This document shows, one piece after another, positions 5,131-61,036 of a DNA stretch of 64,000 nucleotides (its first letter is position 1; every line of letters begins with the position of its first letter). The translations under genes were made by a program, and so were the position numbers. Source of the stretch: a virus (lineage: Duplodnaviria > Heunggongvirae > Uroviricota > Caudoviricetes); the IMG/VR virus record IMGVR_UViG_3300028591_000125. One strand, given 5' to 3'. The notes under the pieces were generated by a model that had not been told where the DNA came from, ran no database searches, and saw only the letters and a list, made by a program, of their open reading frames with translations.

Positions 5131-5249
5131 AATTTCTATTTTAATTCATATATAAGGATTAAAAGGGAAGAAAAAAGTAGTGTGGATTTTGATTTATCCA
5201 CTTTCTTGATTTAATATAATATTTTTTCAATTAGAATTTGTGAGCGTTT

Positions 5250-6362: not shown

Positions 6363-6452
6363 ATTATTTTTAAGTATTTTTTATCCACATATATAAGGAT
6401 TAAAAAGGAAATAAAAAGTAGTGTGGATTTTAATTTCTCCACACTAAATAAA

Positions 6453-7876: not shown

Positions 7877-8003
7877 AATTTTAATTTTTAAGTTGTTTTA
7901 AATATTCTGTTAACTCATATATAAGGAAATAAATATTTTTTCAGATGGTAAAAAAGAGGCACCAATTAAGGCACCTGTATAATCATTTTGTAACGGTCTC
8001 TTT

Positions 8004-8483: not shown

Positions 8484-8486
8484 AAT

Positions 8487-8894
8487 TTAGTGTTTTAATA
8501 ATTTACGGGTTTTTTCATCTAACCACCCATAAGCTGGATGATTTGCTAATTTTTCCATAAGTTCCATAGGATTTACGGAATTTTTAGTATTTACATAATA
8601 TACGTTAAATGCCCACAAACCTTTTTCCCATAAATCATATTCTGGGAAATCTTTTTTGAATTTTAAGGCAAATGGTATATAGTAATCCCGATCTTCAGGT
8701 AAATGCCCCGAAGGTAAATCCGTTAAGGTTAAAATAGTCGTTCTTCCATCAAATCGATCTACTTGCCAGTATAATATTCCATTAAACTCATCTTCCTTAT
8801 TTAAGGCATTTTCCTTTGGTATCGTATTTTCAATAAAATATTTAATTAATAACAATAACATAAATAAATTTCTTTCATATTTTCCGTTTGCCAT
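8487..8894 (-). CDS. hypothetical protein, family B
   Basis: 135 aa ORF with KKDFPEYDLWEKG and a C-terminal ...NHPAYGW motif. Confidence 0.5.
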   Translation of the reverse strand: MANGKYERNLFMLLLLIKYFIENTIPKENALNKEDEFNGILYWQVDRFDGRTTILTLTDLPSGHLPEDRDYYIPFALKFKKDFPEYDLWEKGLWAFNVYYVNTKNSVNPMELMEKLANHPAYGWLDEKTRKLLKH

Positions 8895-8898
8895 ATTT

Positions 8899-9441: not shown

Positions 9442-9445
9442 ATCT

Positions 9446-10147: not shown

Positions 10148-10539
10148 TAATAGCTCAGTGTTGATCTGAACACAATCATATTCACTGCAACAATATCGTC
10201 ACTTTCACCCAGGCAATATTCCGTTCCTTTTGGTATAATGCAGGGAACAGAACCGAGGCGTCGTCCACAGTCATAATCTGCATGAAAACCATATTCTATT
10301 GTTTCTCTTATGTTCCCGCAAATTATCCAATTCCTTATCTCCAAATGATTTATTAGGCGTAACTCATTATCACTATAAGAATAAGATTCAGCCGTCAATA
10401 TTTTATTATATGGATACTTTACATTAAATGCACGTATACGTGGTTTCCAATATCTTACATGGTCCTCCACAAGTTTGTAACACAATATATCTTTCTGTGC
10501 AATTTCAGGTTTACAACCTCTTTTAATAAATAGACACAT
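10114..10539 (-). CDS. hypothetical protein
   Basis: 141 aa ORF. Confidence 0.45.
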   Translation of the reverse strand: MCLFIKRGCKPEIAQKDILCYKLVEDHVRYWKPRIRAFNVKYPYNKILTAESYSYSDNELRLINHLEIRNWIICGNIRETIEYGFHADYDCGRRLGSVPCIIPKGTEYCLGESDDIVAVNMIVFRSTLSYYWYKIKKLWQE

Positions 10540-10580
10540 AACGTTATTCTGGTTTAAAGTTTTGTAACATAAATATCATA

Positions 10581-11021
10581 TCACCAATTTTTGAATATTG
10601 TTCGTGGGCAACTGCATTCCATCTCAATACAATCCGGCTTCATAATTATTTTGGGGTAAATTGAGATAAACATTCCCGAGGTGTTTTTGGATATATAATC
10701 CTCCTCACCATTTCTCTTACCTTCGAGGAACTTGTAGAACGCCACACCGCCGTAGATGTGCGTTATTTCGATTTCATCCCAAATGCTACGCAATGAAAGA
10801 ATGTCAGTTGAGTCCATATATAGGCGAGCACCTACAAAGAGTTTATCAAAATTCAATATTTGGATTCTGTTCATACAACTCCGTTCCTCATAACTCAGCT
10901 GTTTAGGTATTGGTAGTTCAATACCATATTTCTTTTCCCAAGTCATGTTCTGTTCAAATTCCTCTTTAGTCATATTATACCGTTCATTCAACCAAACAGT
11001 GAAGTCCTTGTTGTTTTCCAT
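10581..11021 (-). CDS. hypothetical protein
   Basis: 146 aa ORF. Confidence 0.5.
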   Translation of the reverse strand: MENNKDFTVWLNERYNMTKEEFEQNMTWEKKYGIELPIPKQLSYEERSCMNRIQILNFDKLFVGARLYMDSTDILSLRSIWDEIEITHIYGGVAFYKFLEGKRNGEEDYISKNTSGMFISIYPKIIMKPDCIEMECSCPRTIFKNW

Positions 11022-11033
11022 AATTATTTCGGT

Positions 11034-11216
11034 TTATCTGTCATACATAAACAAATGCGGTGATTTTCCTGTCCATTTGCTTCCAACCTTATGACTATTA
11101 TAGAATCTGTGACTAACACGTCTGGTCTGGATGGTTTGGAAGGGTCGTATCAACGCCCCATCTCTTAGTCTCTCTATCTCGGATACTAAAGCGGATTTTG
11201 GTATGTATTGTTCCAT
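11034..11216 (-). CDS. diverged or truncated paralog of 347..565
   Basis: 60 aa ORF. The first 24 aa, MEQYIPKSALVSEIERLRDGALIR, are identical or near-identical to 347..565, then it diverges. Confidence 0.35.
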   Translation of the reverse strand: MEQYIPKSALVSEIERLRDGALIRPFQTIQTRRVSHRFYNSHKVGSKWTGKSPHLFMYDR

Positions 11217-11222
11217 AATTGC

Positions 11223-11471
11223 TTAATCATTTTTAAAAACATACCACCACATAAACTGTCTGAGATATCCATTATTAAACCACCAACAGAAATCTTTGCG
11301 CATACCAAACTCGTATTTACCGATGTTAAATGAAAAGATAGAATTTCCCATATTTATTTTTCTTTCATTTAGCGGTGTTTTTATTTTAACTCCATAAGGC
11401 AATCTCGCACAGAGGTCCTGAAGTAATAATTGTTTTTGTGTCATTTTACTATTTGTATTTATTCCTGCCAT
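11223..11471 (-). CDS. hypothetical protein, N-terminus paralogous to 1..343
   Basis: 82 aa ORF with LLLQDLCARLPYGV near the N-terminus. Confidence 0.45.
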   Translation of the reverse strand: MAGINTNSKMTQKQLLLQDLCARLPYGVKIKTPLNERKINMGNSIFSFNIGKYEFGMRKDFCWWFNNGYLRQFMWWYVFKND

Positions 11472-12124: not shown

Positions 12125-12166
12125 AACATATATAAGGATTAGAGGGAAAAAGAAACGGAAAGAAAT

Positions 12167-12520: not shown

Positions 12521-12536
12521 AACATATATAAGGAAA

Positions 12537-12770
12537 ACAAAAAGAAGAGACCAACTTAATGATCTCCTCTCTCACTAAAATATGCACAACACGCAAAGTA
12601 ACGTGTAGAATAATTTAAAAAGTTCACCTCATAAGCCAAGCACTCGGTAACTTGCGTCCTCTCACTCTGAAGATCCTAGTCTACATTACGTAATCTAGAA
12701 TCGACTTATGATGTATGTAATTAATATATGAATTTTGTGTCTCGGATTTTAAATGGTTTTCTTTTTACGT
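12537..12770 (-). ncRNA. candidate small RNA with own promoter and terminator
   Basis: Minus-strand promoter motif at 12755..12770 with a hairpin and T-run terminator at 12540..12570. There is no ORF and GC is elevated. Confidence 0.35.
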
Positions 12771-12781
12771 ATATAAGGATT

Positions 12782-13093
12782 TCAAGGCTTTTCATCTTCT
12801 ACGTTTAATATATTTACTATTCTCCATTTTCTGTATTTCTCATTTTGTGAAAAATAAGATATTACTACTGATATTACTGACTCTCCTTCTTTTAATTTTA
12901 AATCTCCTCCTATAATAGTTTTACATCTATATGGAATATAACTACATATTTTTTTACATTGTATTTTATTTATTCGTTTGTGGTGGTTCTTATAATTATA
13001 AAGATAGAGACAGAAGTCGAGTCCCATCATAGGTATACAGAGAAACATTTCATTATATTCAGACTCAACTATAAGAATCTTATTTCCATACAT
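12782..13093 (-). CDS. hypothetical protein
   Basis: 103 aa ORF. Confidence 0.45.
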   Translation of the reverse strand: MYGNKILIVESEYNEMFLCIPMMGLDFCLYLYNYKNHHKRINKIQCKKICSYIPYRCKTIIGGDLKLKEGESVISVVISYFSQNEKYRKWRIVNILNVEDEKP

Positions 13094-13409: not shown

Positions 13410-13494
13410 ATATATATAAGGAAAATAAAAATACAGAAAATATGGTCTAAAATCCTTATATATGAGAAAAACATCTGATATATTTTAGTACCAG

Positions 13495-14136: not shown

Positions 14137-14175
14137 TTTGTACTCTTTTTTTTAACTAAGATCCTTATATATGTT

Positions 14176-16759: not shown

Positions 16760-17225
16760 TATAAATAAAATCTCTATAAATCTCTATAAACTGTTTTCCT
16801 GAGTATTCAGCAAGTTCCTTAGTTCTGTAGCAAAGACGGGAACCGTAGAACGAATACGTAGCCGAGAACCCGTTGTGCGCAGACGCAAAACCGAGACCCG
16901 CAGCCGAGCCGTTGCTAGCGAAGCCACCCCAAGCGAGAACACGGAATTTATCTTTTAAATTATCTATCTCTTCCTTTGTATATAATTTAAACCAAGGGAA
17001 CCACTTAATTTCACCATCTTTATACGTTGGAGTCCACCCTTCATTAAGGGCCGCAACTATAATTCGAAGTTTAAGATAAGCTATAATATCTACGTCAATA
17101 AATTCTTCAAATGGAGGAAGACTTTGTAATACTGAATGATACTGTATTACTAAGGGATTATCTTCTCCTAATTCATTACAAGCATCTTCAAATGTTTTTA
17201 TTCTATCTATAATTTTTTTCTTCAT
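16740..17225 (-). CDS. hypothetical protein
   Basis: 161 aa ORF with promoter motif at 17226..17240. Confidence 0.5.
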   Translation of the reverse strand: MKKKIIDRIKTFEDACNELGEDNPLVIQYHSVLQSLPPFEEFIDVDIIAYLKLRIIVAALNEGWTPTYKDGEIKWFPWFKLYTKEEIDNLKDKFRVLAWGGFASNGSAAGLGFASAHNGFSATYSFYGSRLCYRTKELAEYSGKQFIEIYRDFIYNEPKRD

Positions 17226-17262
17226 ATATATAAGGAAAATAAAACTGGAAAATTGAATCCCG

Positions 17263-17814: not shown

Positions 17815-18270
17815 ATATTTTTAATTTACCATATATAAGGAAAATAAAAGAACTTAGATGTATTTCTAAGTTTTTATTTTATATTTCATTATAAGTTTAG
17901 CGGGCTCCCCTTGAAATACAACATCGGAAATTACCTTATGATCTGTATCATTTAATATGTCTTTATGTATTCTACGATCAAAAATAATATCATTATTACA
18001 TAAAATTTTTTTAGTTAGTTTTTTATTTATTGAGTGCCCACATCCTATAGAATGATTAATATTAACTCTGCTTATTTTTACATAATAATCACCAATAGAT
18101 TCTACTATAATGTAGAAATATTTATAAAGTAGGAAGAATCCATCTCTACTATTACATATTGGTAAAGATCTCGGGATAAATAATTATTTATTATTTTGTA
18201 TACATAAACTTCTGTCATACATTAATAAGAAATTAAAAAGAGTCAGATTTTACTCCAACTCTTTAAATAA

Positions 18271-20949: not shown

Positions 20950-21041
20950 ATATTTTGTTTTTATTTTATTTTCTCTATGTATAAGGAAATTAGATCCTTC
21001 ACATAGCAAACTGGACTCTGAGTTTTAAATTCCTTATAAGT

Positions 21042-21257
21042 ATGAAGAAGATAAAAAATATTATAAAGAAGTTTTTTAAAAAAGAAAAAGAAAAGACTTC
21101 AGAAAAAACTAAAGAAACTGAGGGAGCTTGCGGTAAGGTTCCTACTGAAATACCACCTACACTTATTAAGCCCAAAGTTTTTAATGATGAGGTAATATTA
21201 AATGATTTCTTAAGAAAACTAAACGTAATTATTAATTCTAATTCAAAAAGAAAATGA
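21042..21257 (+). CDS. small Lys-rich protein
   Basis: 71 aa ORF. Confidence 0.35.
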   Translation: MKKIKNIIKKFFKKEKEKTSEKTKETEGACGKVPTEIPPTLIKPKVFNDEVILNDFLRKLNVIINSNSKRK

Positions 21258-22325: not shown

Positions 22326-22377
22326 TTGAAATAAGATCCTGGATTTTTCTGGGATCTTTTATTTTCCTTATATATAG

Positions 22378-22563: not shown

Positions 22564-22598
22564 CTTGAACCCCTTATATATGAAAAAAATAAAAAACT

Positions 22599-22751: not shown

Positions 22752-22793
22752 GGGGATATAAAAATATATTCCCCTTTTGTTTTCCTTATATAA

Positions 22794-23150
22794 GTGATAG
22801 ATTTAGATTATTTTATTTACAAGAATCTTTTATTTGTTTATTTACCGGACTTAAATCAATTACATTCATCATTCCCTAAAAACAGAGGATTAATTGAAAT
22901 AAACTTAAATAATCATTTAAGAAAAAAATTAAATAAATATCTAGTTTTGTCTTTCTTAAGAAATGTATTATGTGGAAAATATCCTTATGTAAGTAGTGGA
23001 TTAACTGAAGCTCCTTTTTATTATAGAATTAGTAATGAGATACATATTTATAATTCTGATCATGAGGATTATAATAAAATAATATTTACTGCTAATGATG
23101 CAGAAGATTTTAAAGATTGGTTTAAGAATAATGGGTTTGATGTAAAATAA
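22794..23150 (+). CDS. hypothetical protein (GTG start)
   Basis: 118 aa ORF. Motif TTCCTTATATAA precedes the GTG. Confidence 0.4.
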   Translation: MIDLDYFIYKNLLFVYLPDLNQLHSSFPKNRGLIEINLNNHLRKKLNKYLVLSFLRNVLCGKYPYVSSGLTEAPFYYRISNEIHIYNSDHEDYNKIIFTANDAEDFKDWFKNNGFDVK

Positions 23151-23526: not shown

Positions 23527-23602
23527 AATACATGTATTTAAATTTATATTTTACATATATAAGAATTTGAATGCCTTATAACTGTGAAAAACATATTATA
23601 AA

Positions 23603-26751: not shown

Positions 26752-26800
26752 ATTATATTTTATTTCTATCTATAAGGCTTTTAAATTCCTAATATATGTT

Positions 26801-27064
26801 ATGAAAAAGAAAAATGTAATAGAGTTTTTATGTCAGAGTGGAACGATCTGGCTTGTCTTAAGTAATTTAATTAGTACTAATTCGTGTAATTCTATTGAAA
26901 ATTGCAAAAGAAATTTAAGATTAATTGATGAACTAATTCAAGACCTAGATGATACAAAAGATATATTACTAGAAGATAAAGAGAAAATAAAAGAATTACT
27001 AGAAGAAGGAAAAGCGATTATACAACAAAAACTAGATGAATATGAAAAAAATAAGAAGGATTAA
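26801..27064 (+). CDS. hypothetical protein
   Basis: 87 aa ORF. Motif TTCCTAATATATGTTATG. Its stop codon TAA lies in the terminator loop. Confidence 0.45.
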   Translation: MKKKNVIEFLCQSGTIWLVLSNLISTNSCNSIENCKRNLRLIDELIQDLDDTKDILLEDKEKIKELLEEGKAIIQQKLDEYEKNKKD

Positions 27065-27080
27065 TTTCCTTCTTTTATTT
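27055..27080. terminator. intrinsic terminator (bidirectional)
   Basis: GAAGGATTAATTTCCTTC followed by T-run. Same hairpin as at 24444. Confidence 0.55.
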
Positions 27081-27460
27081 TATTACTTCTGCGCCCCTAT
27101 TATAAATTTCATTTTTTATTTACTAGGTCTAAATATCGATATAAAAATGTTGTCATTATGTTTCCGGTTTTTGTTTTCACATCGACCTATACTCCAGGAA
27201 ATATTTCATTCCCTTCGCAACAACTTAGTAAACATCTTTAGTGTTCTCGTCCCCCTAACTGCGCAGAAGTGTGTTGATACTAGGGGGTTATGTACACAAT
27301 TGGAAAAACCACTCGACTGATATTCTTATTGGAAATAATATTTTTTATCTAAATTTATATATATGTTTATTTTTAATATTAATATTACCATTTATCATAT
27401 ATATAATTGTCTTCTATTATCTCCTAATATCACCTGATCAATATTAATAAGCCAACTATG
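27075..27460 (-). ncRNA. candidate non-coding RNA
   Basis: Minus-strand promoter motif at 27462..27476 with no ORF longer than 20 codons. Long-loop hairpin CCCCCTA...TAGGGGG at 27250..27290. It ends at the 27055 terminator. Confidence 0.35.
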
Positions 27461-27476
27461 TACATATATAAGGATT

Positions 27477-29374: not shown

Positions 29375-30589
29375 TTAATAGCTAGTTAAAAGTTTGAATA
29401 CAGTGCTTCGTTCACCCTCTACTTTCGTTCCTTCATAGATTGGTAAATAAACGGCTTGCATTGCGTCTCCAATTGACCAACCATCTGAAACTAATTCAGC
29501 AACCATTAAAGATTCACGAACACTAGGACAACAAGATAATTCCTGTTTCTTAGCCAAAGATCTTATGTTATTGGCTATCTTAACTATAATTTTAGCAAGA
29601 TCTGATTTTATATTTGTTCTTTTTACTAGAACATCTACTTCTTCAGTCTCTGGTATATAGTTAAGCTCCAGTGGGAAGAATCTATTAACTAGTGCTCTAT
29701 CCATAGAATTAGTTCCTGAATATTCAGCACCAACATTTGCAGTTGCTATAAAAGTAACTTCTGGATGTATCTTTATATCTCTAACACCTTTTCCACAAGC
29801 TATTTCTACGCTTAAACTTCTTCTCTCATCAAGACAAGGAAATAATATATTCATTGCAGTTTGAGGTGCTCTAGAAAGTTCATCAAGAAGAATCACACCA
29901 GGCTCTTGAATAACCTTAGTGAAGTTAGCATAATCAAATACACTTTCTCCTCCTTCTAATCTGTGAACTCCTAAAAGCGACGATATAGGATCTAACATAC
30001 TTCCCATATCAAACACATGAAGATTAAGTCCAAGTCTTTCACATAATATTTTTATACAACTTGTTTTTCCAGTACCAGCAGGTCCTAATATCAAAGTATT
30101 AACTTGCTTCTTTATATTTCTAGCTAGTAATTTCCAATCATTACTTTGCATAAAAAAGCCGTCATCCTTAGAAGTAGGTGCCTTAAAGTAAGAATCTTTT
30201 GATAGAGTTTTATAAAGAGTTATAACCTCTTCTTTTTCTTCTATCACAGGTTCTTCGGTTTTTGTAGAACGATCTTCTACTTCAATTTCTACTTCTTCTA
30301 CTTTTTCTTTTTTTATTTCTAAAGACTCCATAAGCTTTTTATATTCATCTTTTATTACTGTTGCTGTAGTATCTGACACTACATATACACGTCCTTTATA
30401 ATAGGTTGCACCAGAAGACAGTGAAACAGTAGTTGGATGACGATATGAAAAATATATGGTATCAGTAGAAGAAGACCTAATTGTTTTAGAACAACTAACT
30501 CTACAAGTTACATCTAATCCTTGGCCAGGTAATGGATAAATCGAAATTTTTCCTTTCTCTAATTTTCCAGTATAAAAATAATAACTCAT
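29375..30589 (-). CDS. MoxR/CbbQ/CobS-like AAA+ ATPase
   Basis: 404 aa ORF with Walker A LILGPAGTGKTS, Walker B ILLDELSRA and a sensor region ATANVGAEYSG. It sits directly upstream of the VWA gene. Confidence 0.65.
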   Translation of the reverse strand: MSYYFYTGKLEKGKISIYPLPGQGLDVTCRVSCSKTIRSSSTDTIYFSYRHPTTVSLSSGATYYKGRVYVVSDTTATVIKDEYKKLMESLEIKKEKVEEVEIEVEDRSTKTEEPVIEEKEEVITLYKTLSKDSYFKAPTSKDDGFFMQSNDWKLLARNIKKQVNTLILGPAGTGKTSCIKILCERLGLNLHVFDMGSMLDPISSLLGVHRLEGGESVFDYANFTKVIQEPGVILLDELSRAPQTAMNILFPCLDERRSLSVEIACGKGVRDIKIHPEVTFIATANVGAEYSGTNSMDRALVNRFFPLELNYIPETEEVDVLVKRTNIKSDLAKIIVKIANNIRSLAKKQELSCCPSVRESLMVAELVSDGWSIGDAMQAVYLPIYEGTKVEGERSTVFKLLTSY

Positions 30590-30714
30590 ATATAAAAAAT
30601 TTAAATATTAATAATTCATTTTACTAATTGTGTAATATAGCACTAAACTATACTACACAGATATAAGGAATTCAAAAGAAAAAAGGAAGAACATATTAGT
30701 TCCTCCTATATAAA

Positions 30715-31170: not shown

Positions 31171-31187
31171 TTCCTTATATATGTATG
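31171..31187 (+). promoter_or_regulatory. example of the conserved gene-start motif TTCCTTATATATGT(T)ATG (plus-strand copy)
   Basis: The motif ends 2 nt before the ATG of 31185..31727. The same 12-14-mer was located by eye more than 30 times, e.g. 14150, 22363, 26778, 37044, 45830, 59400, 61017 on plus. Confidence 0.6.
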
Positions 31188-33935: not shown

Positions 33936-34037
33936 GGGAGCTCAATTCCTTATAGATGAAAAAAAATAAAAATTAAAATGTAATCAAAACTAAAAATTTT
34001 AAACTATGAAGAAGAAATTTATTAAAAAACTTTAGAT

Positions 34038-34623: not shown

Positions 34624-34893
34624 GTGAAAGGTATTTATGGGGTTTTTGTTTTAGATAAAGAATGGGTTATAATAAAAGCAGAACCTGAAAACATAAATAT
34701 AAAAGTTAGGTTTGATCTGAGTGAATTAATTTATGAAAAATCAGAAAAACTAAACGAAAAAGAATTATATGGGGTTTGTAAAGCTCTTAATGAAAATAGA
34801 ATACCAGAGTTTGATAGTCAAGAGTGTATGGCTTTGATTTTGGAAAAATATACAACTCAAACCCTAATATATGATATTAACCAGGACATTTAA
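34624..34893 (+). CDS. hypothetical protein
   Basis: 89 aa ORF. Confidence 0.4.
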   Translation: MKGIYGVFVLDKEWVIIKAEPENINIKVRFDLSELIYEKSEKLNEKELYGVCKALNENRIPEFDSQECMALILEKYTTQTLIYDINQDI

Positions 34894-35434: not shown

Positions 35435-35471
35435 GACGCTCGAACGATAAAAGGGCGTCTCTTTTTTTTTT
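35435..35471 (+). terminator. intrinsic terminator
   Basis: GACGCTCGAACGATAAAAGGGCGTC followed by T10. Confidence 0.6.
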
Positions 35472-35505
35472 GCACCCTCTAATGTTTAATTTCCTTATAT
35501 TTGAA

Positions 35506-36366
35506 ATGGTTTATGTATATAAAGACAGTAAGAATAGATATACATTTTCAACAGAACCTATACCTGAGTTACAAGTTACTCTTCTATTACCTTGGGACTA
35601 TATACCCATTGAAAATATTAGACCGTGGAAAATATTAGGTATTAGTACAGATCTTTATAAGGCTAATGTTCTTCTTTACTTAGAACAATGGAAAGACTCT
35701 ACTACACCTCCACCCTCTGAAAAACTTGAAGTAATTTATAAAACACAGGCTGAGGAAATATTATCTGATTATAAAAAAATTATAGATATCTTAGTTTCTT
35801 TAGAATTAATAAAAGAACCTCAATATCCGATTAAATATAAAAAGTATATAACCTATGAATGTGATATACTTAATTATCTTCGTGAAACTTTGGGTGATTA
35901 TGTTTTCGATCTTTGTGAAAAATATAAAAACCTGGGGGAATTAAAAAAGAACTCATTAAAAAAATTATTAAAAATAAAAGGACGTGAAAACAAATTAGGA
36001 TTTTTGCAAACACTTGAGATTGATCTTGAATTTTTTACTTTCTTGCCTCCTTGGTTTAAATCTAATTACCAGGTTTTTGGAGAACAAGAAAAAACTGTAA
36101 GAAATCAAGATACAACAACTATAGAATACAGAGAACAAACTAGAGTTGATGGTCATATAGGTGAACCTCTTATTAAAGAAAATATTTATACTGTATTTTC
36201 TTATGGAGAAATTCTTTCTTCTAAAGAAATTAAAGAAAGATTAAAAACTCTTTATGATCGATTAAATATAAAAAGAACTCCTAAAGTTTCTGATTTGTTT
36301 AGTTATTTTAATGTAATGAGAACCTATTCAAGATTATATAGATTAGATAGAAATTATGGGACTTAA
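35506..36366 (+). CDS. hypothetical protein
   Basis: The ORF-track start at 35470 lies upstream of the motif. Motif TTCCTTATATTTGAAATG places the start at 35506 (MVYVYKD...). Confidence 0.5.
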   Translation: MVYVYKDSKNRYTFSTEPIPELQVTLLLPWDYIPIENIRPWKILGISTDLYKANVLLYLEQWKDSTTPPPSEKLEVIYKTQAEEILSDYKKIIDILVSLELIKEPQYPIKYKKYITYECDILNYLRETLGDYVFDLCEKYKNLGELKKNSLKKLLKIKGRENKLGFLQTLEIDLEFFTFLPPWFKSNYQVFGEQEKTVRNQDTTTIEYREQTRVDGHIGEPLIKENIYTVFSYGEILSSKEIKERLKTLYDRLNIKRTPKVSDLFSYFNVMRTYSRLYRLDRNYGT

Positions 36367-36814: not shown

Positions 36815-36835
36815 AATCCTTATAAATAACAAGAT

Positions 36836-37007: not shown

Positions 37008-37062
37008 CATAAAAAAATAGATTGGATTAATTCCTTTCTATTTTTTATTTTCCTTATATATA

Positions 37063-39081: not shown

Positions 39082-39305
39082 GTCTCATACTTCCATAAAA
39101 TTACACCAGAGAGATTTCTATCCGCCAGATAAGGAAAATTATTAGATATCGAACTCATCACTAACTTATTCACCAGCTTCTTCGATAACTTCTTATGAAA
39201 CACATTATCCACATACATCCATACATATAACTTCTCCTTTTTATCATCTTTTATAACTAACCTGTACGAACCTAACTCAAAATCAACTAGTAATACAGTC
39301 ATCAT
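39078..39305 (-). CDS. hypothetical protein, family D
   Basis: MMTVLLVDFELGSYRLVIKDDKKEKLYVW...KKLSKKLVNKLV. Confidence 0.45.
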   Translation of the reverse strand: MMTVLLVDFELGSYRLVIKDDKKEKLYVWMYVDNVFHKKLSKKLVNKLVMSSISNNFPYLADRNLSGVILWKYET

Positions 39306-39392
39306 ATATAAGGTTTGTAAGGTGGCGTAAAATAAAAGACCGGGAAACTAAGGCAAAGGTAATACAGTCGCCTAAAATCTCCGGTCTAAAAT

Positions 39393-40670: not shown

Positions 40671-42746
40671 TTAATTTCCTTTCTTATTTATTATTTCAAA
40701 CCCATGCTCCCATTTACCATCTGAATTCTTAATTTTGACTGACTTTAATTCAAAAAATTCCTCTAAGTCTGAAGCTTTTGGTGTTTTTGTTATTCCATTC
40801 TCTTTATATAATTTCCCCAATGTTTCTTTTATCTGTTTAGTAGTATATTTAGAACCAATGGAGAAAATAGATTCAATTATATTAGATTCTTTTGCTTTCT
40901 CTAAATTACTAATATTCTCTATTTCTCTTATAATCTCTAATTCTCTAAACCCATTAGCCTTCATTCTATCAAATCCTAATATATTTATGTAATTTTCATA
41001 AGATCTGGGAATAAAAGAACTAATAAAATCTCCAAATTGTTTAAATAATTGAGGGTATTGTTCATGATAATCATATATACACCTCATCCTAGGTTCAAAA
41101 CTATTAGGCAAGGATTCGTATTTCTCTTTAAATTCATAGAACAAATCTTTTAGTGCGTCAGAGGTTTTGTTTTCATCTGAAGCATCTAGATTATATCCTT
41201 GAATTGACTCTATACCTCTTTTAATAGTTATATCATCTTGATACTCTTTTCTAGATACATCAAACGCTCTTTCTTCTGCTACTTTAACCAAATAATTAAA
41301 TGTAGCCTTTCCAGTTCTAGATGAAACGCCTAAATAATTCTTCTGATATAAATTTTTAACATCGGCTGCTACAGTTGACCAAGATAATTTCTCTTCTTCA
41401 GACATTTTCTCATACCCAGCTAAAAGTCTCTCAGTTTCTTTTATCTTAGAATCAATATTAGCTTTACTTTGTTCTTCTGTAAAGTTAATAGAAGCTTCAT
41501 CTTTAGATCTTGCCTTATATAAGAATAAAACTTCATTTCTAAATACATTCTCCTTTAATCTTTGTCGTCCTAGAATTTGAGGAAGATCCAAAGAAATATC
41601 TACGGTTAATGTTTTTATATTACAGTCTGAACAAATAATAGTATAAGCACAAGTAGAATAAAAATCAGCACCTAGATAAGAAGTCCTAGTACAAAGTGTA
41701 AACATTTTATGAGCTTCCCCTTGTACTGGTATTTCTCCTATCTTATGACCTACTTTCTTGAGTTTTCCAATATTAACAGTAGAATCTGAACATATTATAT
41801 TTGTCTCCTCCGGTTTTAATCCATTCCTCCTTATTATATGACAAATAGTATTAACAGAATTAACAAATATAACGAGCTCCTTAGATTCTTTTAAGGTACC
41901 GTCTTGAAGTACTTTGTTAGGATAAACTCCTTTTCTATAGTTATCTATCCATTCTTTTAATACTGTTCCTATGTTTCTGGTAATTCTTCTTTCTACCTTA
42001 ACGTGCTCTATTCTACTATCTGGCCACTTCAATTTGTACATAGGGAGATCTTTAAAATAATTCAATTTCCCTAAGTATTTTTCTAACATTGGGGTAGCTG
42101 ATAAGTATAGCACATTCTCACAGTCATAAAGATCGTTGACGAAATCAAGTTCTACGGTCGCTTTAAAAGTTGCGTCCATGAAAATTGACTGAAACTCATC
42201 AACAACTATGGCATAACTCTTTGGATCAATTCCATAACTTTTAAAGACATCAAGGATATGGTGAAGAGAATCATATGTAACAATAATCTTAAAAGGTTCA
42301 TTACTTTTAGAACATTCCTTAAGATAATTAGTTAGGTTTATCTTAAGTCTTGTCATATACGATTCCTTCTCAACATCACTTAACTCAGAAATTTTATCTT
42401 TAATTTCTTGAGTTTTTTCTTTCTTCTCCTCTTCTGTCATGTCAAAGGGAAAATCATAAACAATAGATTCCTCTTCATTTCTGAAATAATAAATACGTCT
42501 TAATCCTTTATTTTGGCCATCTTCACTATTATGTTGCTTCTCTTTGTTCTCTAATAATGCTTTTCTAGGGGAACAAAGAATAGTGGGAATATCATTATTT
42601 AAACAATATTCTGTAAAACCACAACCACAAATAGTTTTATCTAAGATTAAATGACCTTTAGGATAAACAAATTCTTTCCATTCACTAATATATTCTATCT
42701 CATCTGGGACAGCTATTAGATTAACAGTTTTTTCTAAATTTTCCAT
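40671..42746 (-). CDS. SF2 (DEAD/DEAH-like) helicase-family protein with atypical motif I
   Basis: 691 aa ORF. VVDEFQ (motif II), LSATP (III), LCTRTSYLGADF (V) and ILGRQRL (VI) are present. The Walker-A position reads CGCGFTEY. Confidence 0.55.
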   Translation of the reverse strand: MENLEKTVNLIAVPDEIEYISEWKEFVYPKGHLILDKTICGCGFTEYCLNNDIPTILCSPRKALLENKEKQHNSEDGQNKGLRRIYYFRNEEESIVYDFPFDMTEEEKKEKTQEIKDKISELSDVEKESYMTRLKINLTNYLKECSKSNEPFKIIVTYDSLHHILDVFKSYGIDPKSYAIVVDEFQSIFMDATFKATVELDFVNDLYDCENVLYLSATPMLEKYLGKLNYFKDLPMYKLKWPDSRIEHVKVERRITRNIGTVLKEWIDNYRKGVYPNKVLQDGTLKESKELVIFVNSVNTICHIIRRNGLKPEETNIICSDSTVNIGKLKKVGHKIGEIPVQGEAHKMFTLCTRTSYLGADFYSTCAYTIICSDCNIKTLTVDISLDLPQILGRQRLKENVFRNEVLFLYKARSKDEASINFTEEQSKANIDSKIKETERLLAGYEKMSEEEKLSWSTVAADVKNLYQKNYLGVSSRTGKATFNYLVKVAEERAFDVSRKEYQDDITIKRGIESIQGYNLDASDENKTSDALKDLFYEFKEKYESLPNSFEPRMRCIYDYHEQYPQLFKQFGDFISSFIPRSYENYINILGFDRMKANGFRELEIIREIENISNLEKAKESNIIESIFSIGSKYTTKQIKETLGKLYKENGITKTPKASDLEEFFELKSVKIKNSDGKWEHGFEIINKKGN

Positions 42747-42819
42747 AATTTCTAATTTTTAAAATTCTGGCACAGGCCCCTGGAAAGGGCCCTGGCCTGT
42801 ATTTCATATATAAGAAATA

Positions 42820-45789: not shown

Positions 45790-45859
45790 ATATTAAAAAT
45801 TTTACTGACATAATGCATATATAAGGAAATCAAGAAGGCGTAAACTCCTTATATATGTT

Positions 45860-47781: not shown

Positions 47782-48099
47782 AAAAAAATAGAGAGGAAAT
47801 TAAATCTTCTCTTTTTATTTTGAAAATAAAATGGGCTAATGCCCTATTAATAATTTTGTTATTTTTATGTCGAGTGGTACTCAGAGGGGGATGCTTTGGA
47901 AGAAGCTCCCTCCTTTCCCACAAATTGTTTTTTGTGTCGAGTGGTACTAAGAGTTTTTATAAGGCAACAACTATAACTCCGTTCCCACATGGTTTTTTAT
48001 GTTGTTTAAATTAAAATGTGTAAAAATAATCCTAAGCTATTGCATTACGCGGCTTAGGTTTTCTTTTTTGTTTCATATATAAGGCTTTCAGTACCTTTT

Positions 48100-48330
48100 C
48101 AGACGGCCTTATTTTTGTGTCAATTTTTAATGATTTTCTTCTATTTTATCTATTTAGCTGAGGCCGGTCGTGGCCAGAACTCAAATAAGAGCGAAATTTT
48201 ATAACCTACTCTTTTCTTTTAAACCATGATATCGTTTTTACGACTGGATATTTTTACTAAAAGAATTTTCGATAAACTCTGTAAATTTAAGTTCTGAGAA
48301 CCAATCTATATAACCGGCCTCAACCCTATG
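48100..48330 (-). ncRNA. candidate structured RNA (nested inverted repeats)
   Basis: GAGGCCGGT (48143..48151) pairs with ACCGGCCTC (48313..48321). CAGAACT (48160..48166) pairs with AGTTCTG (48291..48297). A promoter motif is immediately upstream at 48335..48350 and there is no ORF. Confidence 0.35.
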
Positions 48331-48403
48331 TATTTCTCTACATATATAAGGCTTTTAGTACTGTTTTGGGTGGAAAATAAAAGAGGCCTTTAAACCTCTT
48401 TCC

Positions 48404-48478
<75 letters not shown>

Positions 48479-48598
48479 CTATTCTAACATATATAAGGAT
48501 TTCAGTATATTCTAAAACAAAAAAAAAATAAACTAAAGGGACCACAATGGATCCCTAAAGTATAACAACATCAATAGATAATAACATATATAAGGATT

Positions 48599-48784
48599 TC
48601 AAACAGAACAACTGGTCTCTGTATCAAGTATCCAATATTCCTCACAATTATCAAAATCGTTCGCTGATAATTCTTTATTTAATCTTTCTACAGTTTTCTT
48701 TGCTTCCTCTAAGTTATCTGTAGAAATTCCAGTCTCTAGAATCATATCTCCCTTTACAATTTGATATTTATTCATAGTTTTCAT
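48599..48784 (-). CDS. hypothetical protein
   Basis: 61 aa ORF. Confidence 0.4.
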   Translation of the reverse strand: MKTMNKYQIVKGDMILETGISTDNLEEAKKTVERLNKELSANDFDNCEEYWILDTETSCSV

Positions 48785-49038: not shown

Positions 49039-49054
49039 AACATATATAAGGAAA

Positions 49055-49082
49055 TAAAAAGATAGAAGTTAATCTATCTCTT
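49055..49082 (-). terminator. intrinsic terminator; stop codon of 49069..50202 sits in the hairpin loop
   Basis: Minus-strand AGATAGATTAACTTCTATCT followed by a T-run. Confidence 0.55.
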
Positions 49083-50202
49083 TTATAGTCCAACCATAAG
49101 GGCAACCACTATTACTATTTAAAGGAATATCTTTAACTTTTCCTTTATTATATATTATACCATGAGTAGATACATTTTCTAACCAGTTAAGAGTGTTATG
49201 TTTATCCCATAACTGAGTTGTGTTTATGGTAATAGTAATATTGTTTAATGATGTACAACCATTGAACATACTACTATAACAATGATTAGCCAAAGTAGTA
49301 GCATGTAATTCAGGAGCTTCCGTTAATGAAGTACAACCTTCAAACATACTAAAATAACAATGATTAGCTAAAGTAGTAGCTGGTAATTGAGGAGCACTTT
49401 TTAATGATGTACAATTATCAAACATATACGCATAACAACTCTCAGCTAAAGTAGTAGCGGGTAATTCAGGAGCAGTTTCTAATGATGTACAATCATAAAA
49501 CATACCAGTATAACAACCCTTAGCTAATTTAGTAGCTGGTAATTGAGGAACACTTTTTAATGAAGTACAAATAGCAAACATCCGAGAATAACAACCCTTA
49601 GCCAAAGTAATTGCCAGTAATTGAGGGGCTTCTGTTAATGAAGTACAACCTTCAAACATACCATTATAACAATAATCAGCTAATGTAGTAGAAGGTAATT
49701 TAGGAGTAGTAGTTAATGAAGTACAATCCCGAAACATATTACTATAACAATACTCAGCTAAAGTAGTAGCAGGTAGTAGTTGTGGGGCTTTTATTAATGA
49801 AGTACAATTATAAAACATACCAGCATAACAACGATCAGTTAGAGTAGTAACAGGTAGTATTAAATTAGATGCATCAAGTAAATAACTAGTAGAGTAATAG
49901 CTATTCGCAAATAAACGATAAAAACAAGCACTATTACCATTAAATTTTGTCTCATCTCCCGTAAACTTATCTCCATATATCAGTGACATTATATTTCCAC
50001 TAACATTAAAATAAGTTTTACAATTTATACGTGAAACTGAGGTTGATCTTAAATACAGTTTTCTTTTATGAAATTTTAATTCTTGTTTATTTAATGCAAC
50101 CCAGTTCACTGTATCAAAGGAATATTCTATATTCTTTCCAATTATTTCTAGTATATTAATTTGTTTAAAAGCTAAATTCTCTATACAAAAATAATTTTTC
50201 AT
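49069..50202 (-). CDS. DUF285-type (MFxxCxSL) leucine-rich-repeat protein
   Basis: 377 aa ORF with about eight tandem 24-aa repeats of the form LPATTLA..CY..MF..CTSL..AP. Confidence 0.6.
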   Translation of the reverse strand: MKNYFCIENLAFKQINILEIIGKNIEYSFDTVNWVALNKQELKFHKRKLYLRSTSVSRINCKTYFNVSGNIMSLIYGDKFTGDETKFNGNSACFYRLFANSYYSTSYLLDASNLILPVTTLTDRCYAGMFYNCTSLIKAPQLLPATTLAEYCYSNMFRDCTSLTTTPKLPSTTLADYCYNGMFEGCTSLTEAPQLLAITLAKGCYSRMFAICTSLKSVPQLPATKLAKGCYTGMFYDCTSLETAPELPATTLAESCYAYMFDNCTSLKSAPQLPATTLANHCYFSMFEGCTSLTEAPELHATTLANHCYSSMFNGCTSLNNITITINTTQLWDKHNTLNWLENVSTHGIIYNKGKVKDIPLNSNSGCPYGWTIKEID

Positions 50203-50219
50203 AACATATATAAGGAAAA
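50203..50219 (-). promoter_or_regulatory. same motif on minus strand (reads CATAACATATATAAGGAAA on plus) at start of 49069..50202
   Basis: Identical arrangement at 12124, 12520, 17225, 49038 and 53065 on minus. Confidence 0.6.
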
Positions 50220-50443: not shown

Positions 50444-50534
50444 ATTATTTATATTTTAAAGGTTAATTACATTTATAAGGATTTCTCGGCTTCTAAGGTG
50501 CAAAAAAAATAAGATAGAATTTAATCTATCTTAG

Positions 50535-51210: not shown

Positions 51211-51607
51211 AATTATTATTATTCACTAATTCTAAGAAATTAGTTTTCATTTTCACAACTATAAGGAATTTAAGGGATTTCAAGTGCAAAATAAAAGGGA
51301 ACATTTAAGCTTCCTCTTACCAAACACATTAATATTAAATCATTGACATATATAAGGATTTGAGATGGATAAAAAAATACTACCCAAATTTAATCGGATA
51401 GTATTTTCTCAACACATTAAATCTTATAATTATGACATATATAAGGAATTCAAGGGATAAAAAAAAGAGAGGACCCGTTAAGATCCTCCCCATGCAGAAA
51501 CAGTAACTTATTACACATATAAGGAATTCAAGGGAAATAAAAAGAAGGACCTAAAATTAGATCCTCCCTTTCTTAAAAACTGTAACTTATGGACATATAT
51601 AAGGATT

Positions 51608-53065: not shown

Positions 53066-53184
53066 AACATATATAAGGAGTTTAAATTGGGTTTTTGCAG
53101 AATAGATAATCTTAATACCTTATATAAGTACGGAGAATATTAAAGCTCCGTATAAATTTAAAAATAACAAAATAAAAATATATT

Positions 53185-59356: not shown

Positions 59357-59413
59357 TTTAGTTTAGGAGAGATTATGATTCAGGTTATAATTTCTCCTTT
59401 TATTTCCTTATAT

Positions 59414-59863
59414 ATGATGAAAGGAATTAAATATTACGGATGGAGTAGTAAATCGATTTGGAGACTACTTGGAATTCACTTTACTATTCACTTTAAAACA
59501 CTGAAGGCTTACAATGATTTTTATAGTTTGCCTTCTTGGATATTTTGGTTTTTATATAAGATTCGATTATTTGGCCCGCATTATATTAGTCCTATGTCTG
59601 TAAGTTGTAAATTAATGAAGACAACTGATTTTAAGGACGAAGAGATTAATCGGGCCGGAAGTACGAATCTAAAGAATATAAGTGAAAAAGTAAAGGATAA
59701 GTTAGGAAGGAGAGTTAGATATTATGAAAGAAAAGAGGAGTATATATTGAAGGGATTGATGTTGACCCATGAAGATTATTATTACATTCTCTACTGTCCT
59801 CCTCTAGATTCTTACGTTTATTCATCTTGTACTGGTGGAATTGATTTTATAGAAGATGAGTAG
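59414..59863 (+). CDS. hypothetical protein (start moved to motif-adjacent ATG)
   Basis: Motif TTTCCTTATATATGATG places the start at 59414 (MMKGIKYYGW). Confidence 0.45.
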   Translation: MMKGIKYYGWSSKSIWRLLGIHFTIHFKTLKAYNDFYSLPSWIFWFLYKIRLFGPHYISPMSVSCKLMKTTDFKDEEINRAGSTNLKNISEKVKDKLGRRVRYYERKEEYILKGLMLTHEDYYYILYCPPLDSYVYSSCTGGIDFIEDE

Positions 59864-60968: not shown

Positions 60969-61036
60969 TTATGAGAAAATCGTAGTCGGTAATTAATTTT
61001 TTGCAGTCGAAAAGCATTAATTTCCTTATACATGAT

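Follow-up and report, generated by a model that had tools for sequence, protein, structure and literature searches.

A nearly invariant 18-bp motif of an uncultivated large phage as a promoter probably read by a phage-encoded RNA polymerase

The window, that is the whole 64,000-nt stretch of Caudoviricetes DNA analysed here (IMG/VR record IMGVR_UViG_3300028591_000125), is 89% coding and comes from an uncultivated, AT-rich large phage; among its large proteins, Pfam and PHROGs identified a topoisomerase, a peptidase, AAA+ proteins and one helicase-like protein. Comparison of the window with a phage collection recovered no close relative, with one 90-bp DNA match and protein identities of at most 28%. 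At 31171-31187 lies the sequence TTCCTTATATATGTATG, with an ATG at 31185; it belongs to a nearly invariant motif of ∼18 bp with the consensus TTrAww-TCCTTATATATG (T T r A w w T C C T T A T A T A T G). Two sets of copies were defined, 41 strict copies (TCCTTATATATG with at most one mismatch) and 50 copies from a matrix scan (20 columns, at least 12 bits). The latter are listed here with their scores; position n denotes a base of the 12-mer, and +n the distance from position 12 to the ATG.

5147..5158, minus: motif copy TCCTTATATATG, 23.2 bits; ATG 5130 (128 aa) 17 nt after position 12; hairpin and T-run just upstream
6388..6399, minus: motif copy, 23.6 bits; ATG 6362 (147 aa) +26; terminator-like hairpin upstream
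7916..7927, minus: motif copy, 22.4 bits; ATG 7876 (96 aa) +40
12127..12138, minus: motif copy, 24.2 bits; GTT-ATG, ATG 12124 (221 aa) +3
12523..12534, minus: motif copy, 25.9 bits; GTT-ATG, ATG 12520 (117 aa) +3
12768..12779, minus: motif copy TCCTTATATACG, 24.0 bits; no ORF of at least 40 codons within 120 nt
12924..12935, minus: weak, doubtful copy TCCATATAGATG, 13.3 bits
13411..13422, minus: motif copy TCCTTATATATA, 21.0 bits; ATG 13409 (109 aa) +2; divergent partner at 13453
13453..13464, plus: motif copy, 24.7 bits; ATG 13516 (206 aa) +52; built-in ATG opens mini-ORF MRKTSDIF
14162..14173, plus: motif copy, 21.4 bits; GTT-ATG, ATG 14176 (92 aa) +3
17225..17236, minus: motif copy TCCTTATATATA, 21.0 bits; ATG 17225 (161 aa) +0, its A being position 12
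17830..17841, minus: motif copy, 23.4 bits; ATG 17814 (183 aa) +16
20976..20987, minus: variant TCCTTATACATA, 15.8 bits; ATG 20949 (892 aa, ClpB-like) +27; divergent partner at 21031
21031..21042, plus: variant TCCTTATAAGTA, 14.5 bits; ATG 21042 (71 aa) +0, its A being position 12
22365..22376, plus: motif copy TCCTTATATATA, 19.2 bits; ATG 22378 (61 aa) +2
22571..22582, plus: motif copy CCCTTATATATG, 21.9 bits; ATG 22599 (50 aa) +17; built-in ATG opens 12-codon mini-ORF
22783..22794, plus: motif copy TCCTTATATAAG, 21.4 bits; downstream only a GTG ORF (22794-23150)
23554..23565, minus: motif copy TTCTTATATATG, 19.4 bits; ATG 23526 (114 aa) +28; back-to-back partner at 23573, 7 nt away
23573..23584, plus: variant GCCTTATAACTG, 16.5 bits; ATG 23603 (129 aa) +19
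26767..26778, minus: variant GCCTTATAGATA, 13.9 bits; ATG 26751 (281 aa) +16; back-to-back partner at 26787, 8 nt away
26787..26798, plus: motif copy TCCTAATATATG, 22.3 bits; GTT-ATG, ATG 26801 (87 aa) +3
27463..27474, minus: motif copy, 27.1 bits; no downstream ORF; antisense into 3' end of plus-strand genes
30587..30598, minus: weak, doubtful copy TTTTTATATATG, 13.8 bits; the 404-aa AAA+ gene starts at its own ATG (30589)
30658..30669, minus: motif copy TCCTTATATCTG, 23.9 bits; ATG 30589 (404 aa) +69
31172..31183, plus: motif copy (the one first described), 26.9 bits; GT-ATG, ATG 31185 (180 aa) +2
33947..33958, plus: motif copy TCCTTATAGATG, 17.6 bits; ATG 34038 (155 aa) +80; built-in ATG opens MKKNKN
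34862..34873, plus: variant CCCTAATATATG, 14.2 bits; ATG 34903 (174 aa) +30
35492..35503, plus: motif copy TCCTTATATTTG, 20.8 bits; GAA-ATG, ATG 35506 (286 aa) +3
36817..36828, plus: variant TCCTTATAAATA, 17.4 bits; tRNA-Gln starts at 36836, 8 nt after position 12, followed by tRNA-Asp
37051..37062, plus: motif copy TCCTTATATATA, 20.0 bits; ATG 37063 (105 aa) +1
39303..39314, minus: motif copy ACCTTATATATG, 19.1 bits; G-ATG, ATG 39302 (74 aa) +1
42805..42816, minus: motif copy TTCTTATATATG, 21.1 bits; ATG 42746 (691 aa, SF2 helicase-like) +59
45816..45827, minus: motif copy, 24.5 bits; ATG 45789 (720 aa, AAA+/M41-like) +27; back-to-back partner at 45846, 18 nt away
45846..45857, plus: motif copy, 23.2 bits; GTT-ATG, ATG 45860 (93 aa) +3
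48074..48085, minus: motif copy GCCTTATATATG, 21.4 bits; heads short ORF-less unit with hairpin and T-run
48341..48352, minus: motif copy GCCTTATATATG, 21.6 bits; heads ∼200-nt unit without ORF
48488..48499, minus: motif copy, 25.3 bits; tRNA-Met starts at 48478, 10 nt after position 12
48585..48596, minus: motif copy, 27.2 bits; ∼60-nt unit ending in hairpin 48537-48556 and T-run
49041..49052, minus: motif copy, 24.6 bits; GTT-ATG, ATG 49038 (85 aa) +3
50205..50216, minus: motif copy, 25.2 bits; GTT-ATG, ATG 50202 (377 aa, BspA-type LRR) +3
50470..50481, minus: variant TCCTTATAAATG, 16.1 bits; ATG 50443 (60 aa) +27
51256..51267, minus: variant TCCTTATAGTTG, 19.2 bits; 46 nt before tRNA-Glu (51210), first of the 7-tRNA array
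51347..51358, minus: motif copy, 24.7 bits; heads ∼60-nt ORF-less unit
51436..51447, minus: motif copy, 28.2 bits (best); heads ∼70-nt ORF-less unit
51514..51525, minus: motif copy TCCTTATATGTG, 24.5 bits; ∼60-nt unit ending in hairpin 51466-51491
51594..51605, minus: motif copy, 27.2 bits; ∼60-nt unit ending in hairpin 51539-51572
53068..53079, minus: motif copy, 25.3 bits; GTT-ATG, ATG 53065 (131 aa) +3; divergent partner at 53117
53117..53128, plus: variant ACCTTATATAAG, 15.3 bits; ATG 53185 (topoisomerase II large subunit) +57
59405..59416, plus: motif copy, 23.6 bits; G-ATG, ATG 59417 (148 aa) +1
61023..61034, plus: motif copy TCCTTATACATG, 20.4 bits; GAT-ATG, ATG 61037 (495 aa, ligase-like) +3

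The 41 strict copies in the window compare with 1.06 expected (shuffle maximum 4) and the 50 matrix copies with 0.9, confirming the start-site motif with more than 30 copies that the initial annotation had recognized by eye; its 15-mer gave 51 matches with up to three mismatches (10.5 expected), and the reduced pattern CCTTA-N4-TG gave 43 (6.7 expected). The description of the copies as nearly invariant holds for the core, with C3, T4, A6, T7, and A8 identical in 41/41 strict copies, whereas position 12, always a purine, has G in 37 copies and A in four. The most informative columns lie in TCCT (C2, 2.15 bits; C3, 2.68 bits), and the conserved span covers -6 to +13 relative to the 12-mer; in the aligned copies, conservation was zero from -50 to -10 upstream of the 12-mer, with no -35 or -33 element. 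CC and TG, the flanks of the consensus stretch TATATATG, are essential; CCTTA-N4-TG is all of the motif that a 38%-GC relative keeps, which supports reading it as bipartite.

The copies are placed as promoters would be. Thirty-five of the 41 strict copies are wholly intergenic, 31 of the 40 gaps of at least 35 nt contain a copy in the correct orientation, and copies run in the same direction as the downstream gene. A hairpin and T-run directly precede 17 of the 50 copies, as against 5.6% of random positions, and six divergent pairs stand back to back only 7-30 nt apart, leaving no space for upstream elements. The targets comprise protein genes, three tRNA units (tRNA-Gln, tRNA-Met, and the 7-tRNA array), and ∼10 mini-units without an ORF; an Rfam search of the small units and intron-like inserts found no family. 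The tRNA and ORF-less targets mark the motif as a transcription signal rather than a translation signal and, together with position, orientation, and the terminator-promoter tandems, support the promoter function first proposed for it. Three other candidates were rejected: an operator or iteron, because motif orientation strictly follows the genes; an archaeal or eukaryotic-virus TATA box, because its spacing does not fit and both the terminators and the gene content resemble those of bacterial phages; and Shine-Dalgarno-like pairing, because the motif is in the wrong sense.

The genes driven in the window are those for topoisomerase II, the ligase-like and ClpB-like proteins, the helicase, tRNAs, and many small ORFs. 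Copy density is ∼0.8 per kb in the window and 0-0.2 per kb in large-gene modules, such that the distribution is less than the genome-wide one claimed; an 11.3-kb block of tail genes that the phage carries right beyond the window and the structural blocks of relatives contain no copy. The motif is thus best read as the main promoter of the non-structural genes of the phage. The proposed late class is not supported by these replication, tRNA, and small genes or by the empty tail and structural blocks, and the one point in its favour is that AR9 and phiKZ promoters used by the non-virion polymerase ("late") have the same geometry as the motif.

Spacing to the start codon is bimodal. Among 174 non-redundant copies from the window and its relatives, an ATG opening at least 50 codons lies at 0-4 nt in 27 cases (18 of them at +3), at 5-12 nt in one, and at 13-58 nt in 58, so that distances are either 0-4 nt or at least 13 nt; no real start codon lies before position 12. 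In IMG/VR matches, an ATG at +3 leads into a long ORF in 55 of 69 cases, compared with 19% of all ATGs. In the window, the ATG lies 0-3 nt after the last motif base in 18 of the 50 copies, to which the earlier statement that it stands about 2 nt after TATATA applies, though not to all copies; similarly, all 22 start codons listed at the outset follow a copy, but about half do so within 3 nt, and 5130, 6362, 7876, 17814, 20949, and 22599 lie 16-40 nt away. This spacing, the purine at position 12, and the tRNA-Gln beginning 8 nt beyond it suggest that the transcription start is the final base of the motif (always a purine, usually G), with A10 or the A of the ATG as alternatives. Leaderless or near-leaderless mRNAs, earlier suggested for the motif as a whole, would then be expected from ∼36% of copies and not from the remainder. 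Against this, leaderless initiation in Escherichia coli works poorly on mRNAs with leaders of 1-3 nt. Shine-Dalgarno boxes are absent from nearly all genes, as in Bacteroidota. Contig ends, checked as possible RNA-derived 5' ends, yielded one suggestive case, a Logan contig whose first base lies 2 nt past position 12 in the copy at 5147-5158, possibly by chance.

A polymerase or sigma factor gene of the phage itself, whose existence the initial annotation had raised, was not found in the ∼96 kb read (the window and a further ∼32 kb of an incomplete genome), nor was a T7-like gene; a DxDGD scan, a T7 motif-A scan, and tblastn with T7 RNA polymerase were all negative in the window, and Pfam and PHROGs assigned no large window protein to a polymerase or sigma factor. 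The DNA beyond the window came from ENA contig k141_3147856, which extends to window coordinate ∼118,977 and was read up to 83.6 kb and from 107.1 kb onwards; the phage is present in samples ERZ27256846, SRR8436538, SRR7634034, and JGI 3300024345 and 3300037675. The core CCTTATATATG is common only to AT-rich viral contigs of 200-400 kb, the helicase of which is 33-55% identical to that of the window. These contigs encode a β′ subunit with NADFDGD (Pfam RNA_pol_Rpb1_2, E = 5.5e-12) and a β subunit (RNA_pol_Rpb2_6), their split β/β′ genes are riddled with introns, and copies or variants of the motif lie upstream of the helicase-polymerase gene cluster. The helicase adjoining the polymerase genes had no PDB match, singly or as a profile. 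By tblastn, the relatives' β′ matched annotated β′ genes of the very phages that gave the best matches to the topoisomerase of the window, and had no match in phiKZ-like phages; any analogy with phiKZ or AR9 thus spans distant polymerase lineages. The extended pattern TTRAWWTCCTTATATATG gave mostly single chance matches in viral contigs. E. coli phage EP_H11, which has a related β′, was no help in interpreting the motif, as its own motif is unrelated and GC-rich and its genes are Shine-Dalgarno-led.

The restriction of the core to this lineage, and the lack of sigma-70 or Bacteroidota -33/-7 architecture, bear out the claim that the promoter is phage-specific. A sigma-70 promoter would carry a -35 hexamer 16-18 bp upstream of a -10 hexamer, but the copies are unconserved from -50 to -10, and consensus matches numbered 31 against 35.9 expected. 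The motif is probably read by a phage-encoded RNA polymerase, a link that rests on relatives sharing 33-55% identity in one protein. The preferred reading, with a probability of about 0.58, is that it is a promoter for a phage-encoded multisubunit polymerase and gives near-leaderless mRNAs. We infer that the enzyme would be non-canonical, assembled from split β/β′ fragments, and distinct from the host holoenzyme. With the terminal G as +1, TCCT at -11..-8 would be the upstream specificity element, followed by the easily melted TATATA at -7..-2, T at -1, and G or A at +1. About one third of transcripts would then carry 0-3 nt before the AUG, typically as 5'-GUUAUG, and would be leaderless or near-leaderless mRNAs for translation in a host without Shine-Dalgarno pairing; transcripts from the other copies would have leaders of 16-84 nt, or would be tRNA precursors or short RNAs bounded by terminators. 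Poxviruses likewise combine a virus-encoded multisubunit polymerase with an initiator (TAAATG, in late and intermediate promoters) that overlaps or abuts the start codon. The analogy is functional only, as these are viruses of eukaryotes whose mRNAs gain a poly(A) head by slippage, which nothing indicates for the window phage.

AR9, in which transcription needs uracil-containing DNA, has a polymerase distantly related to that of the window phage's lineage. Its non-virion ("late") promoters have the form AACA-(6N)-T-A/G(+1) (PMC5312081), and with the terminal G as +1 the motif would share with them a tetranucleotide at -11..-8, six bases, T at -1, and a purine at +1, as well as a dense distribution (about one per 1-2 kb) and, through the relatives, a split β/β′ polymerase. 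The tetranucleotide differs (AACA in AR9, TCCT here, in the same place), the spacer TATATA and six more upstream bases are conserved here, and AR9 leaders measure 26-491 nt (PMC5312081) as opposed to the 0-3 nt proposed here. The late promoters of phiKZ are T(-3)ATG(+1), a motif needed for transcription and bound on the non-template strand by a β-like subunit (PMC4666361, PMC12809450); the window motif also ends in TATG, but little is conserved upstream of it in phiKZ, compared with ∼14 further bases here, and no leaderless transcripts were observed in phiKZ (PMC8244752), unlike the near-leaderless mRNAs predicted here.

A considerably less probable reading is that a virion-packaged multisubunit phage polymerase uses the motif as an early promoter, like the AT-rich ones of phiKZ and AR9. 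The motif is extended, AT-rich, and nearly invariant, as are virion-polymerase promoters, whereas the late promoters of phiKZ and AR9 are weakly conserved (PMC5312081, PMC4666361); phiKZ-like early promoters also precede operons of small genes, and the small ORFs, replication genes, and tRNAs driven here, the motif's position before the polymerase cluster of relatives, and its absence from tail-gene blocks would all suit an early class. However, early transcription starts 6 nt downstream of the conserved block in AR9 (AAATATATATTAT-(6N)-G+1), phiKZ, and phiR1-37 (PMC5312081), a geometry that cannot hold where start codons stand 0-3 nt past the block: it would remove 27 start codons at +0..+4, and it fails to explain the near-empty 5-12 nt class.

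Recognition by the host polymerase is unlikely. The primary-sigma promoter of Bacteroidota has TTTG at -33 and TAnnTTTG at -12..-5 (PMC9723704), and TATATATG, one position off TAnnTTTG, might be a variant of this -7 box read with the host primary sigma or a phage sigma or appropriator, TCC and TTrAww being phage-specific additions. The lack of Shine-Dalgarno boxes, a tail-protein homologue in Muribaculum, and the ∼96 kb of phage DNA without a polymerase gene speak for this reading. Against it, TTTG at -33 is absent, nothing is conserved upstream of -18, the back-to-back pairs are too close for an upstream element, and the relatives have their own polymerase; furthermore, a Flavobacterium box at -12..-5 (PMC9723704) places the start 5 nt after the G, past the ATGs at +0..+4, and the leaders of 0-7 nt that should be common from that start are nearly absent. 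A T4 late (gp55) promoter consists solely of TATAAATA ∼6 nt upstream of the start and agrees neither with the essential CC and TG flanks nor with the spacing.

A T7-like single-subunit polymerase is less likely still. The contiguous ∼18-bp motif (-17 to +1), with TATA at -4..-1, G at +1, and no -35 element, would resemble T7, T3, and SP6 promoters in its length, its AT-rich 5' portion, its specific central part, and its TATA-G. The sequences are nonetheless unrelated, T7 RNA polymerase tblastn and the motif-A pattern were negative in the window and ∼70 loci, and a pattern scan of 223 loci (∼1.9 Mb, genomes sampled only around promoters) found only multisubunit β′ in the lineage. The promoter of EM1, TCAGAAGTCACACTATAA (PMC9596486), comes from work on an elephant-dung phage that is T7-like and unrelated. 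Action on RNA, as a processing site or translation-initiation element, is hardly credible: the motif adjoins start codons and its TCCTTA resembles the 16S rRNA 3' end, but it is in the anti-Shine-Dalgarno sense, which makes pairing with the anti-Shine-Dalgarno impossible, stands 0 to 84 nt from the ATG, comes after terminators, heads tRNA and ORF-less units, and occurs in back-to-back divergent pairs that lack another promoter.

Full-text literature searches recovered no paper with this motif and none on promoters of the lineage. A broader proposal, still tentative, is that an uncultivated gut lineage of large phages combines a non-canonical multisubunit polymerase with an 18-bp promoter uniting the AR9 (-11..-8) and phiKZ (-3..+1) geometries, such that about one third of start codons would lie 0-3 nt from the transcription start and the choice of start site would also fix the translation start. 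Such promoter-coupled leaderless expression, in a host without Shine-Dalgarno pairing, has not been reported for phages with such a polymerase. If the polymerase assignment is true, the promoter grammar of non-canonical phage polymerases reaches a distant gut-associated lineage, and the motif predicts which subunits contact which bases; leaders of 0-3 nt would provide a natural test of leaderless translation in hosts without Shine-Dalgarno pairing, where so short and strict a promoter, paired with its own polymerase, could serve as an orthogonal expression tool.

As a sequence-only map, the motif delineates ∼50 transcription units across the 64-kb window, reveals ∼10 candidate small RNAs, and fixes start codons. 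Four predicted ORF starts upstream of or inside a copy were moved downstream (35470 to 35506, 61001 to 61037, 21009 to 20949, and 59375 to 59417), the initial annotation having likewise corrected four. The three mini-ORFs that it described were also present, each starting at an ATG in motif positions 10-12; they are most likely by-products of this internal ATG and, with transcription starting at the terminal G, would not even be transcribed in full.

The sequence at 31171–31187 reads TTCCTTATATATGTATG, with the ATG at 31185, and is one copy of a motif whose 12-position core, here at 31172–31183 (+), recurs in the window. Four patterns describing this motif all occurred far more often than expected from shuffles, confirming the recurrence reported in the initial annotation, and every start coordinate listed there is preceded by a copy. 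The 41 matches to TCCTTATATATG with ≤1 mismatch were treated as strict copies, and the 50 matrix hits at ≥12 bits as a wider set.

Occurrences of the motif patterns in the window, observed and expected from shuffles
15-mer of the initial annotation, ≤3 mismatches: 51 observed, 10.5 expected
TCCTTATATATG, ≤1 mismatch: 41 observed, 1.06 expected (largest 4)
20-column matrix, ≥12 bits: 50 observed, 0.9 expected
CCTTA-N4-TG: 43 observed, 6.7 expected

Alignment of the 41 strict copies revealed a conserved stretch of ∼18–19 bp, in which a 5′ flank with T at −6 (31/41) and T at −5 (39/41), followed by r-A-w-w, leads into the core T1 C2 C3 T4 T5 A6 T7 A8 T9 A10 T11 and a purine at position 12 in every strict copy (G in 37, A in 4), with T preferred at position 13. 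The most informative columns were C2, C3, and G12, and no conservation was observed from −50 to −10. Variants retained CCTTATA and TG while differing at positions 8–10, and a relative with 38% GC retained only CCTTA-N4-TG, a pattern pointing to putative bipartite recognition with an AT-rich middle.

Although the window is 89% coding, 35 of the 41 strict copies are fully intergenic, and 31 of the 40 gaps of at least 35 nt contain a copy co-oriented with the downstream gene; gaps that lack one mostly correspond to the intron-like inserts in the topoisomerase gene or belong to a block of genes led by Shine-Dalgarno boxes. Directly upstream of 17 of the 50 copies is a hairpin plus T-run, compared to 5.6% of random positions, and at 45–53.5 kb all four minus-strand terminator-like sites found by a consensus scan adjoin copies, just upstream. 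Six pairs of copies are arranged back to back and divergently at spacings of 7–30 nt, so that the upstream region of each promoter is its partner, and neither a −35 element nor an activator site can fit in between. The window showed no enrichment of sigma-70-like sites (31 versus 35.9 expected).

Within the wider set, the ATG of a gene lies 0–3 nt past position 12 in 18 copies (ten at +3, mostly GTT-ATG), 17 copies have leaders of 16–84 nt, three head tRNA units (tRNA-Gln at 8 nt, tRNA-Met at 10 nt, and a 7-tRNA array at 46 nt), and 12 have no ORF downstream. Because the motif heads tRNAs and ORF-less units, it acts in transcription rather than translation, and its identity as a promoter is close to certain (probability about 0.93). 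Four starts in the ORF track that lie upstream of or inside a copy must move downstream (35470 to 35506, 61001 to 61037, 21009 to 20949, and 59375 to 59417). The three mini-ORFs described earlier are all present, each opening at the ATG formed by motif positions 10–12, and are probably by-products of an ATG built into the motif.

ORF-less units headed by copies among these 12
51285–51605 (−): four tandem units of ∼60–70 nt, each with its own motif copy
47800–48600 (−): three units, each with its own motif copy

These seven units are 50–70 nt long, except for one of ∼200 nt, and most end in a hairpin plus T-run; an Rfam search of them matched no family. Adjoining tRNA genes, they are candidate phage small RNAs, and units 1 and 2 at 51.5 kb are paralogues. 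One of the best-scoring copies (27463–27474 (−), 27.1 bits) directly follows the stop of a 630-aa gene and is aimed into the 3′ end of convergent plus-strand genes at 27036–27320; a small or antisense RNA may arise from it.

Credible start codons all begin at or after position 12, and in the copies at 17225 and 21042 the A of position 12 doubles as the A of the ATG. When copies from related contigs were pooled with those of the window (174 non-redundant), the spacing between position 12 and an ATG that begins an ORF of ≥50 codons was bimodal, at 0–4 nt in 27 (18 of them at +3, 17 of those as GTT-ATG), 5–12 nt in one, and 13–58 nt in 58, as expected if transcription starts at or beside position 12. 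Among 69 IMG/VR matches to the 17-mer, 55 have a long ORF beginning at the ATG at +3, compared to 19% for all ATGs; many of the 69 represent one orthologous locus, and about ten independent loci behave alike. Position 12 itself is narrowly favored as the start, a flexible start at positions 12–15 is rather unlikely, and a start at A10 is improbable. A −10- or −7-type element, and a Flavobacterium TAnnTTTG box does lie at −12 to −5 (PMC9723704), would place the start 5–7 nt past position 12, but this would delete the start codons at 0–4 nt and does not predict the near-empty 5–12 nt class. For about a third of the units, the sequence supports the leaderless or near-leaderless mRNAs predicted in the initial annotation. 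The Logan contig SRR7634034_110585 (3.8 kb), of which the retrieved 3.4 kb are 100% identical to the window, starts at window position 5145, 2 nt past position 12 of the copy at 5147–5158; this may be a mapped 5′ end if the run is RNA-derived, and chance is equally possible.

Taking G12 as +1 places TCCT at −11 to −8, TATATA at −7 to −2, T at −1, and the purine at +1, the same layout as AR9 late promoters, AACA-(6N)-T-A/G, in which transcription starts at the last base (PMC5312081), and the motif ends in the TATG of phiKZ late promoters, T(−3)ATG(+1). It differs from both in the sequence of its upstream element, in its conserved spacer and six further conserved upstream bases, in its near-invariance, which is a mark of their virion-polymerase class (AR9 early promoters read AAATATATATTAT-(6N)-G(+1); PMC5312081), and in its 0–3 nt leaders, whereas those of AR9 span 26–491 nt (PMC5312081) and phiKZ showed no leaderless transcripts (PMC8244752).

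The core NCCTTATATATG is also present in AT-rich viral contigs of 75–400 kb, mostly after ...tgaaa or ...ttatt, and the helicase of motif-bearing contigs is 33–55% identical to that of the window. In these relatives, an NADFDGD-containing β′ fragment (Pfam RNA_pol_Rpb1_2, E = 5.5e-12) and a β fragment (RNA_pol_Rpb2_6) are encoded in a cluster that is headed by the helicase homologue and interrupted by numerous intron-like inserts bearing homing endonucleases. Copies or variants of the motif occur upstream of this cluster. By tblastn, the β′ fragment matched annotated β′ of Rhizobium, Escherichia, Vibrio, Ralstonia, and Acinetobacter phages and no phiKZ-like phage; the two Escherichia phages, Vibrio 1.031.O, Ralstonia RP13, and Acinetobacter Ab1-TPeters are also among the matches listed for the topoisomerase of the window. 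In the ∼96 kb of this phage covered (the window and 32 kb beyond), a search for its own RNA polymerase or sigma factor, suggested in the initial annotation, recovered neither, nor a T7-like gene. The best-supported mechanism, and a fairly probable one, is a phage-encoded multisubunit polymerase that would read the motif as a phage-specific promoter and start at or beside the terminal G; support for it comes from the relatives and from geometry rather than from this phage itself. The SF2 helicase-like protein of the window (40671–42746 (−), 691 aa) has DEFQ and SAT motifs and no match in Pfam, PHROG, or PDB. Its gene lies apart from any polymerase gene; because the polymerase cluster of relatives begins with its homologue, the protein may be a transcription factor. 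Actin-like proteins (ALP_N/MreB-like_C) are encoded just downstream of the window (locus L234, 11831–12835) and, in a relative (L225, 1–835), ∼2 kb upstream of the helicase-polymerase cluster.

Sequence of the phage in ENA assembly ERZ27256846, two contigs joined by the window
k141_2077374: window 2–40448
k141_3147856: window 49947 to ∼118977

Tail module beyond the window (locus L238)
1–11348 (window ∼73.3–83.6 kb): tail protein, then genes of 553, 516, 1446, 233, 260, and 298 aa

The initial annotation suggested a late promoter. The motif does resemble, in its geometry, the non-virion ("late") promoters of AR9 and phiKZ, and one copy could precede a long structural operon; however, it drives genes for replication and tRNAs along with small genes, and it is absent from the only tail module of this phage that was covered, so the label was not upheld. 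The first 10 kb beyond the window contain 6–8 further copies, but the following 11.3 kb, composed of large co-directional genes starting with the tail protein (phrog_5302, E = 5e-48), contain neither a copy nor Shine-Dalgarno boxes, and the far contig end (11.9 kb, including a muramidase) has two copies. In the relatives, structural blocks with tail-fibre-like and terminase-like genes also lacked a co-oriented copy over ∼12 kb.

The window (GC ∼31%) encodes a T4-like split topoisomerase II, ligase-like, ClpB-like AAA+, M42 peptidase, and SF2 helicase-like proteins, ten tRNAs, and many small ORFs, and no relative in the phage collection exceeds 28% amino-acid identity. Shine-Dalgarno boxes are absent from almost all genes of the phage, and upstream regions are A-rich. 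The exception, a block of 9–10 small genes at 347–4740 (−) with strong AAGGAGGA boxes and higher GC (0.35), suggests that these genes either were acquired recently as a module or form a set translated separately. The scarcity of Shine-Dalgarno boxes, a homologue of a tail protein in Muribaculum, and the recovery of relatives from gut and dung samples (EMG data set; PMC9596486) together suggest a Bacteroidota host. BspA-type leucine-rich-repeat paralogues occur in this phage at window 49069–50202 (−) and beyond it at L238 10001–10897 and L239 671–1873; thousands of sequences related to this family occur in gut metagenomes.

Region 54901–57151 (+) of the topoisomerase II gene, with two intron-like inserts
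54901–55178 (+): intron-like insert 1
55179–55367 (+): 62-codon exon between the inserts
55368 to ∼56970 (+): intron-like insert 2, with an HNH endonuclease ORF at 55506–56765

Both inserts carry the paired elements CAACGACTAT...GATATAGTCT and GCTGG...CAGC, and an Rfam search of them matched no family. In relatives (L225 7614–17444, L228 9882–18250, and L213 1724–3016 and 9074–9235), inserts with the same paired elements, often containing homing endonuclease ORFs, divide the RNA polymerase β/β′ genes, as well as a terminase-like region, into many pieces, an unusually heavy load of intron-like elements.
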